Source of the DNA: a virus
DNA length: 64,000 nucleotides
Direction: 5' to 3' (one strand)
Virus record (IMG/VR): IMGVR_UViG_3300010224_000007
The notes beneath the pieces were generated by a model. The model was not told the DNA's origin and made no database searches. It saw only the letters and a list, made by a program, of their open reading frames with translations. This document shows, one piece after another, positions 56,531 through 61,308 of this stretch. Every line of letters begins with the position of its first letter. The stretch's first letter is position 1. The position numbers and the translations under genes were made by a program.

Positions 56531-57928
56531 TTACTTGCGTTCCCAGGTAGATTCGCCGGCCATGATGGAGCCGGCCGGCAATATCCGGTCGACGATCTTG
56601 GCGAGGCCGTGCTTCTCGATCTGGGCTGTGACCTGGGTGGCGTTCTTGTAGCCACTTGGCAGCTCAGACACATCGGGTTTGCCGGTGAAGAACCGGATAT
56701 CCAGCCCCTTGGTCTCACGATCCATGACAGCCTGGATCGCGTTCGGCCCGAGACCACGGGTGTCGCCGAACTCTTCCATCAGCCGCTTCTTGTGCGCGGT
56801 GCGAGACATATTCCTGCCAGCACCGTGCGGGGCGAAGCCGAGGGCGTCGGCTCGATCGGTGTGTCGTGCGATCAGGATCGGCTGGGCCATGTTCATAGGG
56901 ATCAGCGTCAGACCCGTGTCGTCGGCCGAGAAGCCGTTGAACGACGGTGTCGCTCCCTTCCCGTGATAGAAAAGACCGTCGTCGCGCCGGAAAACGAAGT
57001 TGTGCTCGTTCCAGAACTGGTCGATGATCTTGTTTCCCATCCGCTTCTGCATGAGGTCATGGATGCCGAAGTGGTTCAGCTCCGTCCACTTACGGACGAT
57101 TTGGAGCGCCTCCCAGTAATCTTGTCCAACCTGTGAGTCGGCCTCGATCCATGCGTTGTGGGATGGTACTCGTGGGGCGACAATGGTCGTGTGTCGCCGA
57201 GCTGCGGCCATTCCTCGTTTGTAGAGCTGGGCACCAAGACCTCGGCTCCCATGGTGCGTAACGATCGCGAGATCGCCAGTGCTCTCAAGGTTGCCGACGT
57301 AGAAGAAGTGATTGCCATCACCTTGCGTGAGGTATTGTCCTGCTGCAATTGCTTCCAGTCCTTTCAGGAATGGATTGGTTTCGAACGAGCCGATCAGCTC
57401 TTTCAGTTCCTTCGGCAGAGGCTCGGGTTTGCGGTGTGTCGCCCCGAAGTGGGTGGTTTGCATCGCCACGTCGAGCACCTTGCCGGCATTCTCGTTACGG
57501 CCGAAGACGGTGATCGCCATCGAGCAGCAGATGTCGGCCGAGTGGAAACCGGGGTGGATCGCGTTCTTCGTGGCGACGACACCACCCACCGGGATCGTCC
57601 CTGGTGCCGAGCCGGAAGGACAGGCGTCGGGCATGATCGCGCCTGCGACGATCGTCGGCACCCGCATCAGTGCATCCATGTGCTGGATGACGGCGTTGGT
57701 GTTCTCGACCTCGTCTGGTCCTTCCGGCTCGATAAACTGGCCGAACGGAATGTTGTTGGTGCGGAGTGGAATCTCGGGTGCTGGCTGCGGCTCCTCGTCG
57801 ACCAAGCTCCTCTGGATCTCGGGGAGCGTCCAGCCAGCCCCGAGACGGTCGTTGCCGATCTTGACGGCTTCGCTGAACCAAGGACCGGGTTTGAAGCCCC
57901 ATTCGATGAGTGTTTTTCCGGTGATCAT
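56531..57928 (-). CDS. rtcB: RtcB-family RNA ligase
   Basis: MPDACP, DICCSM, GDGNHF, HHGSRG, WNEHNF, HGKGA, HGAGR, ELPSGYK. Confidence 0.93.
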   Translation of the reverse strand: MITGKTLIEWGFKPGPWFSEAVKIGNDRLGAGWTLPEIQRSLVDEEPQPAPEIPLRTNNIPFGQFIEPEGPDEVENTNAVIQHMDALMRVPTIVAGAIMPDACPSGSAPGTIPVGGVVATKNAIHPGFHSADICCSMAITVFGRNENAGKVLDVAMQTTHFGATHRKPEPLPKELKELIGSFETNPFLKGLEAIAAGQYLTQGDGNHFFYVGNLESTGDLAIVTHHGSRGLGAQLYKRGMAAARRHTTIVAPRVPSHNAWIEADSQVGQDYWEALQIVRKWTELNHFGIHDLMQKRMGNKIIDQFWNEHNFVFRRDDGLFYHGKGATPSFNGFSADDTGLTLIPMNMAQPILIARHTDRADALGFAPHGAGRNMSRTAHKKRLMEEFGDTRGLGPNAIQAVMDRETKGLDIRFFTGKPDVSELPSGYKNATQVTAQIEKHGLAKIVDRILPAGSIMAGESTWERK

Positions 57929-58019
57929 GTATTCTCCCGTTTGTTGCGTGATAGCGTCTTGAAATGTCAGCGAATTTAGGCAAAACATCCAACGGTTCCG
58001 AGGATACTGTAAGGGGGGC

Positions 58020-58337
58020 GTGGTGAACAAATTTTTAGGTGCTCTAGTTCTTCTTTTGAGCTTGGCAACGAACGGCAATGCCCAAAATCTCTGTCCAACC
58101 ATTGCCAAATATACAGAGGCAACAATGAAGGCTCGGCAACACAATGTCGGCCTGAGTCAGTTGTTGGATAGTATTGAAACCGTTACGAATGAGGGTGTGC
58201 GGGCGCGGATGAAATCCATCACTCTTCGGGCATTTGAAGAGCCTCATTTTGCAACAGAAGAGATGCAGAATAGAGCTATTCAAGACTTCACTGATAACAT
58301 TCGCCTCGCTTGTGAACGAGAGTACGAGAGTAACTGA
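58020..58337 (+). CDS. Exported protein with signal peptide (105 aa), opposite strand
   Basis: KFLGALVLLLSLATNGNA signal peptide; two Cys; looks AT-rich. Confidence 0.65.
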   Translation: MVNKFLGALVLLLSLATNGNAQNLCPTIAKYTEATMKARQHNVGLSQLLDSIETVTNEGVRARMKSITLRAFEEPHFATEEMQNRAIQDFTDNIRLACEREYESN

Positions 58338-58377
58338 GCTTGTGAAACGGCACCAGTGGCGGTGCCGAAACAGAAGC

Positions 58378-58582
58378 TCAGCGCGTTGCGATGCCGAAGC
58401 AGACGACCGCTGCGACGAACAGCAGAATCAATGCAATGCTGAGGCCGGTGCTGTCGCCGCCGGCCGGGTTCTGGCCAGCCGGCCCCGGTCGGACGATGAC
58501 CGGGCACGATGATCATGGGAACCACGCGGGGTGTGACGTGCGGTTCGACGAAGATGTGTGGTGTGATATGGACTGATACCAT
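58378..58582 (-). pseudogene. Small membrane protein interrupted by a one-base insertion (67 aa if repaired)
   Basis: MVSVHITPH...PMIIVP, then the +1 frame gives VIVRPG...LSIALILLFVAAVVCFGIATR*. Confidence 0.45.
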
Positions 58583-58690
58583 CAGGAGGTCTTCCAGCGT
58601 TGGTAGCGGCGACCGGCAGCGAACACGACGCCGGTCCAGGTGATGCCGAGGATCAGCTCGGGCAGGTTGTTGATGATGGCGAAGAGCATG
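58583..58690 (-). CDS. Small membrane peptide (35 aa)
   Basis: MLFAIINNLPELILGITWTGVVFAAGRRYQRWKTS; coupled to both neighbours. Confidence 0.45.
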
Positions 58691-58692
58691 GA

Positions 58693-60053: not shown

Positions 60054-60283
60054 ATGTGGAGGGCTTACACCTCACTCCAATGTGTCGTGGCATCTTGCCA
60101 ATTCGTCTGCGGACTTCTACCGCACCACATCTAGCCCGACGGCGCTCGGGTCCGACCCACCTCGTTGACCTTACGGTCCAAATTCTGGAAAAACAGCCGG
60201 CACCGTCACAGCGTCCAACTTAGGAAAGGAGCAAAGAGCTAAACCTCTGCGACCCCGTCCCACTGTCTTTCCACCCTTGCGAG
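60054..60283 (-). ncRNA. Highly structured non-coding segment
   Basis: 12-bp closing helix 60262-60273/60186-60197 with an inner 7-bp helix; several further 4-5 bp hairpins; no convincing coding ORF. Confidence 0.45.
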
Positions 60284-60540
60284 GGGAACTTAATCAGTTG
60301 CCCGCATTCTGTTGCCAAGCTGCGGGCGGCTCCGGATTAGGCAGCGAGAGCTGCGGTTTCCACGAAAGCGACGTTGTCGTTTGCGTTTAGTTCGGTGGAC
60401 AGATTGTCGGCCGTACCTTGCCGGAGCGCGTTCCCATTTACACTAAAGCCGTCGATTCCCTTACAGCCCCATAAGAGTTTGGTGGAGCTGGCGGCATCGA
60501 AGCCGCGTCCGTACTTTGTGTTTGTGAGCCCGTATTACGC
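60284..60540 (-). ncRNA. ssrA: Circularly permuted two-piece tmRNA (5' boundary approximate)
   Basis: 3' piece ...GGACGCGGCTTCGATGCCGCCAGCTCCACCA ends at 60480; 9-nt linker; 5' piece GGGGCTG starts at 60470; G3-U70; tag ANDNVAFVETAALAA* at 60384-60337. Confidence 0.92.
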
Positions 60541-61064
60541 TCATCTCGCATGCTGTCGGTAATTAACAGCAGAAACTCGGTGAACTCATCATTTGAGAAT
60601 GAGTTCTTTGCTAGGTTCAACCCATAGGCTATAAACTGGACGTTGCCTTTCACATATCCTTTGCCAGAATCAATCCGATCTAGGGACGCTGCGTCCAAAG
60701 TTGATCGACCAGTCAGGTTTCGAAGCCTCAACGGAATTCCACTGATGGCACAATTCCCATCTTGTCTGTTCCAGAGGTCAACCAGATAGTCTTCCTCTAA
60801 GTCTGTCGAATGTCTCCTATCCTTGGCCTTGCGCAGATAGTAGGTGAATTGTCCCTTCAGGTTCTTGGTGTTTCCCACCTGGGAACAGGACAGGCATCTC
60901 CATGCGTTCTTGCTGCATTTATTTCCACATTCGGAGCAGATACGATCTTGCGATCTGTACCTACATTTAGGACATTTCTTGTGTTTGCTCGAAGGGACAA
61001 ACAATTCTTGGCACTCGATACAGATCTTTTCTCTCAGCATTGTTGCTAGATAATGGTGGATCAT
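60438..61064 (-). CDS. HNH (His-Me finger) endonuclease with N-terminal CxxC motifs; start uncertain (61094/61064/61040)
   Basis: CIEC, CPKC, CSEC, CLSC; CAISG...SLDRIDSGKGYVKGNVQFIAYGLN. Confidence 0.85.
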   Translation of the reverse strand: MIHHYLATMLREKICIECQELFVPSSKHKKCPKCRYRSQDRICSECGNKCSKNAWRCLSCSQVGNTKNLKGQFTYYLRKAKDRRHSTDLEEDYLVDLWNRQDGNCAISGIPLRLRNLTGRSTLDAASLDRIDSGKGYVKGNVQFIAYGLNLAKNSFSNDEFTEFLLLITDSMRDERNTGSQTQSTDAASMPPAPPNSYGAVRESTALV

Positions 61065-61098
61065 TTGTAGATCAAAACCGCTAAGATCCACCACGGTT

Positions 61099-61271
61099 CA
61101 AACTGGTGAGAGTTCGACGGTGACACCGCAGTGTCGGGTTGAGACACAGGCACGGAGAACAGGTGAGTGACACGTTGGTGTCACCGTCGAATTGGTCAGA
61201 GTGTGGTGTTCCGCCCACCAACCTTCCGGGTCCAGACCGGAGGCTCTTCTGCACGAGCTTCACCCTGTTTG
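61099..61271 (-). ncRNA. Roughly 173-nt closed multibranch RNA upstream of the HNH gene
   Basis: Terminal pairing CAAAC/GTTTG and GGTGA/TCACC; three hairpins; perfect 15-bp helix 61177-61191/61113-61127. Confidence 0.55.
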
Positions 61272-61279
61272 TTGAGGGA

Positions 61280-61308
61280 TATTTAGGCCGAGTGTATCAG
61301 GCCTTCAA
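61280..61308 (-). promoter_or_regulatory. Sigma70-like promoter
   Basis: TTGAAG-17 nt-TAAATA; predicted start near 61273, matching the 5' end of the structured RNA. Confidence 0.45.

Follow-up and report, generated by a model that had tools for sequence, protein, structure and literature searches.

Cleavage of tRNA has come to be regarded as a widespread mode of bacterial defence, to which phages respond with spare tRNAs and ligases. Circularly permuted tRNA genes, known from Cyanidioschyzon merolae and some archaea, give a full anticodon loop once their ends are joined, and their products are decoding tRNAs. YrlA (Y RNA-like A, RF02553; Chen et al. 2014, PMC4201824) is a Y RNA that mimics tRNA and to which the Ro60/Rsr proteins of bacteria and mycobacteriophages bind; RNase P cleaves it in M. 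smegmatis, and CCA is then added (PMC4201824). YrlA itself also occurs in phages, and in enterobacteria it lies in one operon with rtcB (PMC4201824). Among phages, those rich in tRNAs often encode RNA ligases, RtcB or Rnl (PMC7824862), and phage tRNAs with altered anticodon loops counter tRNA-cleaving defences (PMC10264068). Here we analyze a phage locus that carries a gene for RtcB, a transfer-messenger RNA (tmRNA), a tRNA-Asn, two permuted tRNA-like units and a 115-nt tRNA-like RNA, all on the minus strand, at positions 56,531 to 61,308 of a 64,000-nucleotide stretch. This stretch (the window, to which positions refer unless another locus is named) is bases 4407-68406 of the 81,188-bp virus record IMGVR_UViG_3300010224_000007, whose ends overlap and which CheckV rates as 99% complete.

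We consider that the locus is best explained, with a confidence somewhat above even, as two independent things: an island of RNA genes, in which the two permuted units appear to make up a single two-headed tRNA mimic, and rtcB. The original prediction had suggested that all of these elements could be one coordinated counter-defence module of decoys, repair and ribosome rescue. The elements that it named are real, as profiles, covariance models and folds bear out RtcB, the tRNA-Asn, the permuted tmRNA, both permuted units and the 115-nt RNA. The design it described for three of them, an acceptor stem closed by a loop, holds for the tmRNA and for both units.

The two permuted units, head A (59876..59949, minus strand) and head B (59808..59874, minus strand), are joined by the 3-nt linker GAC (between 59876 and 59874, minus strand). 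When each head was folded alone, the minimum free energy (MFE) structure was a four-way junction, with z scores of -3.52 for head A and -2.12 for head B. The arms follow one another in the order closing stem of 4-6 bp, 4-nt variable (V) loop, T arm (UUCAAAU), capped acceptor hairpin, UC, and D arm GUCU...GGAC. The closing stem of head A is UGAGG(G)/(C)CCUCG, and its acceptor hairpin has 7-8 bp with a capping loop of 8-10 nt; the closing stem of head B is AGGG/CCCU, and its acceptor hairpin has 5 bp. Neither head has an anticodon arm or loop, and the closing stems occupy the position of the anticodon stem. The D arm of the heads, UCGUCUAG...GGAC (UCGUCUA...GGAC), also opens two annotated tRNA-Glu genes of Sphingobium phage Lacusarx. 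Because the D arm matches the tRNA-Glu genes of Lacusarx, we take both heads to be derived from tRNA-Glu, and we read them as permuted modules joined tail to tail via their would-be anticodon stems. This structural and identity part of the explanation is held with high confidence.

The same design recurs in other phages. When the RNA region was compared by BLAST with 50,697 phage records, all matches were generic T-arm ones except for one of 36 nt in Lacusarx (L004, NC_041927), where the two-head design, again with four-way junctions as MFE structures, occupies an unannotated 274-nt gap of a tRNA array. Head A of Lacusarx has a discriminator-CCA inside the capping loop of its acceptor hairpin, as in a permuted tmRNA. 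A strict 35-nt pattern had no match in IMG/VR, and a looser pattern (Glu D arm, short linker, T arm) matched 58 viral loci of IMG/VR and 31 prokaryotic loci. In a regular-expression scan the true modules have the closing stem, whereas the ordinary tandem tRNA genes that were caught by the same expression have none. The two-head design was found in at least four phages with unrelated gene neighborhoods, and no protein family recurred within 4 kb on either side of the mimic at 14 loci. In about half of the loci the mimic adjoins tRNA genes, and in the other half there is no tRNA gene within the fetched stretch. The Lacusarx gap (2359-2431 and 2442-2582) holds, in addition to the mimic, a tRNA-like gene with the anticodon CAU and extra bases between its T and acceptor stems.

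Alignments of the mimic showed compensatory changes. In a first alignment of 12 units (A1), 92.4% of the cells were paired, and covariation was 0.43 compared with 0.14 after shuffling (0 of 500 shuffles) and at most 0.14 when the structure was slid. In a second alignment of 14 units that excluded the window (A2), 92.6% were paired, and covariation was 0.564 compared with 0.173 (0 of 500). Changes on both sides of a pair were seen in all seven acceptor-hairpin pairs and in four of the five closing-stem pairs of A2. A covariance model (R2), which drew on 14 units at 10 further phage loci and on no window sequence, scored head B at 72.6 bits and head A at 60.9 bits (E about 1e-19 and 1e-16); its sole other match on either strand of the 64 kb was a 17-nt partial one in the T arm of the 115-nt RNA.

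The closest relative in sequence, locus L022, is 76% identical to the head B region over 97 nt. Its closing stem has changed from AGGG/CCCU to AAGG/CCUU, and the T stem and the acceptor hairpin also carry compensatory changes. The acceptor hairpin is variable in the family: it is missing in head A of L022 and in L048 and L057, and is capped by GCAA or UUCG tetraloops in L052. A local hairpin between the heads, CCCU-CGAC-AGGG, could form in the window instead of the closing stems. We rejected it, as L022, L025, L048 and L057 cannot form an equivalent and the cross pairings hold there; the closing stems of L022 have 5 and 4 bp, and no local hairpin can replace them. The second head of L022 directly precedes a terminator-like U run. 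Just upstream of the L022 heads (6215-6135, minus strand) lies a mini tRNA-like RNA of about 65 nt that has no anticodon arm, with the acceptor GGGGCG.../...CGCCCC-U-CCA, a D-like hairpin and a T arm; it recalls the mini-tmRNA of mycobacteriophage DS6A, which has no reading frame (PMC11915505).

A second, nested arrangement was found in L025, L048, L057 (the same as L096, a provirus of Methylovulum miyakonense HT12), L006, L013, L061 and L026. Its order is 5' acceptor strand, D arm, short strand, an inner module of closing strand, V, T arm, linker, D arm and closing strand, and then short strand, V, T arm and 3' acceptor strand. The ends are open, the outer (terminal) stem measured 6-13 bp where it could be measured, and the anticodon loop is replaced by the T-arm/D-arm module. 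The inner stem shows a compensatory change from G-C to U-A between L048 and L057, and the Rfam tRNA model aligns both of these as tRNAs with an insert of about 50 nt. The outer 'anticodon' helix has only 3-4 bp where it is readable by eye and was not found in L046. The nested form would be a circular permutation of the tandem in the window, the acceptor hairpin of head A corresponding to the open outer stem. Both arrangements would then give two tRNA-like four-way junctions that are joined tail to tail via 'anticodon' stems.

As in YrlA, the strands of the closing stem enclose, in this order, V, the T arm, the capped acceptor stem and the D arm, and the anticodon loop is missing. The heads differ from YrlA in that two of them are joined tail to tail and in the tRNA-Glu-type D arm. 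Searches of the 99%-complete phage and of five further records with the mimic gave no gene for TROVE/Ro60. The Ro60-contact motif GNCGAAN0-1G is not present in exact form; the nearest sequences, CCCGAAUG and GGCGAAUU, are each one base off. Such one-off matches occur upstream of head A (GCCCGAAUG) and inside the 115-nt RNA (GGCGAAUU), and about 0.4 chance matches to GNCGAA are expected per 400 nt. There is no long Ro-binding helix either, the closing stems having only 4-6 bp. Membership in the YrlA family thus fails on the Rfam score (given below), the TROVE gene, the motif and the long helix, and we regard the two-headed, Ro-less, tRNA-Glu-derived mimic, judging by its arm order, as a variant of the YrlA class. 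It was not found in Rfam 15 or in the literature searched, whereas RtcB, the tRNA-Asn and the two-piece tmRNA are of known kinds. An Rfam search at E<=10 over 55500-62500 matched the heads only with weak tRNA and tmRNA fragments.

A search for a protein of the DUF7873 family (PF25283) gave no match at E<=1 in this phage, and the family is also absent from Lacusarx and the L022 phage, all of which are complete; it was found in one of five other mimic-bearing records. There, in L052, the DUF7873 gene (4001-3246; PF25283 2.6e-60) lies about 500 nt upstream of the Glu-type tandem, and a permuted module and a tRNA stand between the gene and the Glu-type pair. The module next to DUF7873 and the Glu-type pair may be different RNAs. 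No mention of DUF7873 was found in the literature. The intervening module of L052 (3100-2985, minus strand) has an 11-bp capped acceptor hairpin and a non-Glu D arm (UAGUUCAGUGGCAGAACA), so that this jumbo phage has at least three permuted heads of two kinds.

The relation of the RNAs to rtcB can be compared with that in Salmonella, where the rsr-yrlBA-rtcBA RNA repair operon likewise brings RtcB ligase and tRNA-mimic RNAs together (PMC4201824, PMC7790460). The Salmonella genes, however, form one regulated operon with Ro60 and RtcA, whereas the phage has no Ro60, RtcA or RtcR, and its RNAs and rtcB lie in separate units whose linkage is not conserved in relatives. A terminator-like hairpin, a frameshifted TAXI-type gene, two small open reading frames (ORFs) and an opposite-strand gene separate the RNAs from rtcB, and therefore the two are not one transcription unit. 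The statement that everything within about 4.8 kb lies on the same strand was right for the listed elements, but not for the phrog_2315 gene between the RNAs and rtcB, which is on the opposite strand.

Relatives of the phage RtcB were sampled at 26 IMG/VR loci (44-72% identity, 6 kb on either side). None of these neighborhoods contains the mimic; tmRNA is present in 2 of them and some tRNA in 7, giving a tRNA or tmRNA in 9 of 26, and the ten closest have no mimic, tmRNA or tRNA at all. The Rhizobium phages with an rtcB of 69-74% identity have no annotated RNA genes beside it, and no synteny or shared flanking gene was seen around rtcB at 30 loci. Among seven complete or near-complete mimic-bearing phages, RtcB is encoded in three (this phage, Lacusarx and G002), at 12 kb from the mimic in Lacusarx and 25 kb in G002, and is missing from four, including the 100%-complete phage of L022. 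The predicted co-occurrence of rtcB with the RNAs among relatives was thus not borne out: in neighborhoods, synteny and complete genomes, the elements assort independently. RtcB is not part of a fixed system with the RNAs. What survives of the coordinated module is that each part comes from a family with a known or plausible role in sustaining translation: RtcB ligates RNA, tmRNA rescues ribosomes, and a phage tRNA-Asn(GUU) can be a spare for a tRNA that is cleaved by defences such as PARIS (PMC12409363). Co-inheritance and a coordinated module are not supported.

How the island might work can be outlined as follows. Transcription would yield a single precursor, which the tRNA-processing enzymes of the host (RNase P and 3' trimming) would cut, after which the tmRNA and the tRNA-Asn would rely on SmpB and synthetases of the host. 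The two-headed mimic would persist as a stable, non-decoding RNA that shows two tRNA elbows with a tRNA-Glu-type D helix, and would act in trans by binding a host protein that recognizes the tRNA body, like the tRNA-like domain of YrlA. RtcB would repair broken host or phage RNAs independently. Because the mimics, as their sequences read, have neither an anticodon loop nor a free CCA 3' end, they cannot be decoys for anticodon nucleases or substrates for RtcB, and a protein-binding, YrlA-like role is by analogy more likely. We give the trans-acting binding role a chance that falls just short of even. A narrower form of it, in which the mimic is a free-standing RNA without a protein partner of its own that sponges or re-aims a host factor recognizing the tRNA body, seems to us doubtful. 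The target might be glutamyl-tRNA synthetase, RNase P, host Ro60 or a tRNA-targeting nuclease of the immune system that senses the elbow or D helix. If this were true, the mimic would be an RNA-only factor for host takeover or anti-defence, and it would belong, with the tRNA-Asn, the tmRNA and RtcB, to a loosely assembled set of modular tools that keeps translation alive under attack.

Several points weigh against this explanation. The trans-acting role is an analogy, not a result. The Rfam YrlA model had no hit at E<=10 in 55500-62500, and on the homologous unit of L022 it scored 29.8 bits, below its gathering score of 69. The family sample was seeded with the tRNA-Glu D-arm pattern, so that invariance of the D stem is built in. 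The closing stem was a selection criterion for A1, and a structure-aware model chose five of the A2 rows; since closing stems helped to select rows, part of their signal is built in as well, and in A1 the bias-free signal is the acceptor-hairpin covariation only. A consensus scan omitted both the promoter-like site of the island, in which the last base of the -10 element is A, and its terminator-like hairpin, which has only 4 U, and no match to the locus was found among public RNA runs. Finally, RtcB in three of seven complete mimic-bearing phages exceeds what we would expect for phages at large, and it is possible that the two are loosely connected in function or that both favour phages rich in tRNAs.

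The coordinated module, in which decoys absorb tRNA nucleases, RtcB reseals tRNAs and the tmRNA frees ribosomes, all selected together, appears improbable to us. All its parts do lie within 4.8 kb, and the presence of RtcB somewhere in three of seven mimic-bearing phages, of some tRNA or tmRNA gene in 9 of 26 RtcB neighborhoods, and of bacterial rsr-yrlBA-rtcBA operons that tie a YrlA-type mimic to RtcB (PMC4201824, PMC7790460) all speak for it. So does the tRNA-Asn(GUU), as this tRNA is cleaved by AriB of the PARIS defence and phage T5 replaces it with its own copy (PMC12409363); RtcB, for its part, seals 2',3'-cyclic-phosphate/5'-OH breaks. The phage differs, however, from those that counter tRNases with tRNAs, as it has only one decoding tRNA and the mimics cannot replace a decoding tRNA. 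The separate transcription units with an opposite-strand gene between them, the mimic in none of the 26 neighborhoods, the ten closest with neither tRNA nor tmRNA, the missing synteny around rtcB, the lack of RtcB in the complete L022 phage, and mimics that offer no substrate to anticodon or tail nucleases all argue against it. We find it slightly less probable still that the heads are a Y RNA for host Ro60, binding the host Rsr/Ro60 ring and redirecting or blocking PNPase-linked RNA decay. No Rfam YrlA hit was obtained in the window, the GNCGAAN0-1G motif is not exact, the closing stems have only 4-6 bp, and six mimic-bearing phage records that were checked have no Ro60 gene, even though the arms are ordered as in YrlA, the L022 unit matches Rfam YrlA weakly, and Rhizobium etli has YrlA (PMC4201824) while the RtcB relatives are Rhizobium phages.

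About the same low probability goes to a purely cis-acting element, that is, RNase P or RNase E entry sites or exonuclease-resistant caps that mature the tRNA-Asn and the 115-nt RNA, with no role as a free RNA. The position of the heads between two CCA-ending tRNA-type genes in one unit, the U run directly after the second L022 head and the tRNA genes next to about half of the mimics would fit this. It does not account for the half of the loci that have no tRNA gene in the fetched stretch, for nested forms that look free-standing with their own 7-13-bp terminal stems, or for a full elbow (D loop and T loop) conserved beyond the needs of a cleavage signal. Functionless, decaying remnants of tRNA-Glu genes are highly unlikely: the compensatory changes occur in three helices across unrelated phages, the two-head design is kept in at least four phages with unrelated neighborhoods, and the closing stem is missing from ordinary tandem tRNA genes. 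Phage tRNA arrays do contain pseudogenes, and the 115-nt RNA looks like a rebuilt tRNA whose fold is no better than shuffles, but for the two heads decay is already unlikely. The least probable reading, to which we give almost no weight, is that of true permuted tRNA genes, whose transcripts would become a functional tRNA-Glu once they had been circularized (possibly by RtcB) and the acceptor loop had been opened. A gene for an RNA ligase does lie close by, and the arm order fits, since permuted tRNA genes likewise carry the 3' half, with the T arm and the acceptor 3' strand, ahead of the 5' half. Yet the sequence already contradicts this reading: closing stems joined by 3 nt (GAC) leave no source for a 7-nt anticodon loop, no conserved 7-nt loop or anticodon exists in any member of the family, an anticodon loop is lacking in the nested forms too, and some members have either no acceptor hairpin or one that is capped by a tetraloop.

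We prefer the reading of an independent RNA island and rtcB, which has several consequences. An RNA that recurs among phages and retains the elbow of tRNA and the D helix of tRNA-Glu, minus the anticodon and the free 3' end, would imitate the tRNA body for binding and not for decoding. The partner of the mimic would show the purpose of the tRNA-like half of Y RNAs, a question that dates from 2014, and might bring to light a factor, made of RNA, that counters defence or controls the host. As regards annotation, such RNAs can hide in the gaps of phage tRNA arrays, and a nearby rtcB should not be assigned to the same system without comparative support.

The RNA island is about 1.7 kb long (about 61308-59578, minus strand) and probably forms one promoter-to-terminator unit, as its sequence suggests. 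A promoter-like site (TTGAAG, 17-nt spacer, TAAATA; 61280..61308, minus strand) and a leader with a perfect 15-bp inverted repeat (61095..61279, minus strand), at most a putative RNA element, precede a gene for an endonuclease of the HNH/endonuclease VII type (60438..61064, minus strand), the tmRNA gene (60296..60600, minus strand) and a spacer of about 240 nt with a rod-like hairpin (60054..60295, minus strand). The tRNA-Asn (59978..60053, minus strand), the heads and the 115-nt RNA (59684..59798, minus strand) follow, and after two small hairpins on the minus strand, a terminator-like hairpin read by eye (GCCGGGA-N7-UCCCGGC, then AUUUUC; 59578..59604, minus strand) would end the island. The original prediction had also listed further structured RNAs. 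These could not be told from chance: the leader (61320-61090; z -1.58) and the spacer (60300-60054; z -1.65), with fold z scores of about -1.6, gave no Rfam hit at E<=10 and no homologue, and there is no evidence for a separate RNA gene in the spacer.

The tmRNA gene is a permuted two-piece gene of the alphaproteobacterial type (RF04321, 111 bits, gathering score 47; alpha_tmRNA RF01849, 71.7 bits, gathering score 50). ARAGORN at a low threshold gave the tag ANDNVAFVETAALAA with a stop codon (frame 60384-60337) and a hydrophobic end of the ..LAA type. The acceptor 3' strand CAGCUCC-A-CCA, with CCA at 60482-60480, is followed in the acceptor capping loop by the 9-nt linker AACUCUUAU (60479-60471), and the 5' strand GGGGCUG (60470-60464) pairs with CAGCUCC so as to place a G3-U70 pair, as read from the sequence. 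Two-piece phage tmRNAs are known: a survey found tmRNA in 2.3% of phages, 53 of them two-piece, and 50 of these 53 came from marine or aquatic samples (PMC9004378). With the two-piece tmRNAs of Alphaproteobacteria and of phages, for example that of the marine phage Melnitz (PMC9004378, which cites Keiler et al. 2000), the tmRNA of the window shares the permuted gene order, an acceptor loop that holds CCA and then a short linker, the G3-U70 pair and a tag of the ANDN...LAA type. It differs from them in its soil/rhizosphere source, in a homing endonuclease gene that overlaps its 5' end, and in that the phage has no SmpB. As a profile search of the 99%-complete phage found no SmpB, cleavage of the tmRNA into two pieces and trans-translation would need host SmpB. 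Another contig, L123, carries 21 tRNAs and a permuted tmRNA with the tag ANAPVEMAA; ARAGORN assigns Leu(CAA) to one of these phage tRNAs (12074-12149, plus strand), which is 76 nt long yet has no long variable arm.

The endonuclease gene matches phrog_3322 ('endonuclease', 2.1e-21) and phrog_3118 ('HNH endonuclease', 2.9e-10). Its ORF runs about 100-160 nt into the tmRNA gene before the stop (60438-60600, minus strand) and overlaps positions of the tmRNA model. The G+C content of this region is 0.527, below the phage average of about 57%, and the gene looks like a homing endonuclease inserted directly upstream of the tmRNA. A group I intron around the HNH gene was considered and rejected, as it had no Rfam support.

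The tRNA-Asn(GUU) (60053-59978) has an encoded CCA and a cloverleaf with a 7-nt anticodon loop (U33), and is supported by RF00005 (63 bits) and ARAGORN; the phage has no other tRNA that decodes. In the 115-nt RNA, the acceptor stem has 7 bp, the T arm is canonical, and A73 and CCA are encoded. It reaches 30 bits against the Rfam tRNA model RF00005 (gathering score 29), but a 45-nt insert in the D region has to be allowed for this. Folded alone, it does not surpass shuffled sequences (z -0.87), and it has neither a D stem nor a standard anticodon loop, the candidate loop GGAGCAA having G at position 33. Ordinary tRNAs of other phages, with the anticodons Lys(UUU), Leu(CAA) or Gln(UUG), share its first 10 nt and, exactly or nearly so, its last 26-32 nt. 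Since its ends match ordinary phage tRNAs, the 115-nt RNA appears to be a descendant of a normal tRNA scaffold whose interior has been rebuilt; no homologue was found for this interior. Descent from tRNA-Lys(UUU), with which the 3' 26 nt are identical, was rejected, as the scaffold carries Leu(CAA) and Gln(UUG) elsewhere, and the amino-acid identity of the 115-nt RNA cannot be inferred. Five nt past the CCA of the tRNA-Asn and of the 115-nt RNA stand similar small hairpins (59977-59950 and 59683-59660, minus strand), GCCC-GAAU-GGGC and GCCC-CGAA-GGGC, which may be a common 3'-processing signal.

The rtcB gene (56531..57928, minus strand) encodes 465 aa and is a stand-alone, separately transcribed gene in a mosaic accessory region. 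Its start is the Met at 57928 (MITGKTLIEWGF), as relatives align only from there and not from the mechanical ORF start at 58144. The protein matches PF01139 over the catalytic domain (2.5e-28, 99.9 bits, cut-off 27) and, from end to end, phrog_1075 'tRNA splicing ligase' (1.6e-88), is 69-70% identical to RtcB of Rhizobium phages, and has a weak full-domain match to the solved RtcB structures TTHA1785 and PH1602, in which the HGSRGLG and HGAGR motifs are aligned. Its translation contains PDACPSG, HHGSRGLG and PHGAGRNMSR; PDAC, HxSRG and HGAGR are presumably metal-binding and guanylylation motifs, as in P. horikoshii RtcB. Going by its family, the phage RtcB would be a 3'-phosphate/5'-OH RNA ligase. 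Profile searches of the 99%-complete phage found no RtcA and no archease. The nearest cultured relatives of rtcB are in Rhizobium phages of 115-120 kb, with 69-74% nucleotide identity, and short pieces of the RNA region recur in soil and rhizosphere metagenomes. Because of these relatives and metagenome pieces, the host of the phage is probably a soil alphaproteobacterium.

Between the island and rtcB lies a gene for a secreted solute-binding protein of the TAXI/NMT1 type (58693..59557, minus strand; NMT1_3 PF16868 3.1e-06, phrog_6856 7.3e-38), with homologues in Agrobacterium phage Atu_ph08 and Sinorhizobium phage PBC5. The gene encodes a signal peptide, MKYLIGAAFALLFACSANA, and is broken into two overlapping frames near 59290; this split could be a frameshift, a pseudogene or an assembly error. 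Two small membrane-type ORFs stand between it and a function-unassigned gene (58020..58337, plus strand) that matches phrog_2315 over its full length (1.6e-16). The whole region is flanked by two small RTX calcium-binding nonapeptide-repeat proteins (PF00353), at 56081-56500 (5.6e-14) and 61891-62340 (1.5e-08), both on the minus strand. Farther away, at 47192-47250 (minus strand), Rfam gave a partial tRNA (29.9 bits, model positions 6-65), which had been labeled as a tRNA-Thr(UGU) 5' half in an attP site adjoining an integrase; Thr(UGU) and Asn(GUU) are both targets of PARIS AriB (PMC12409363), which may be a coincidence.

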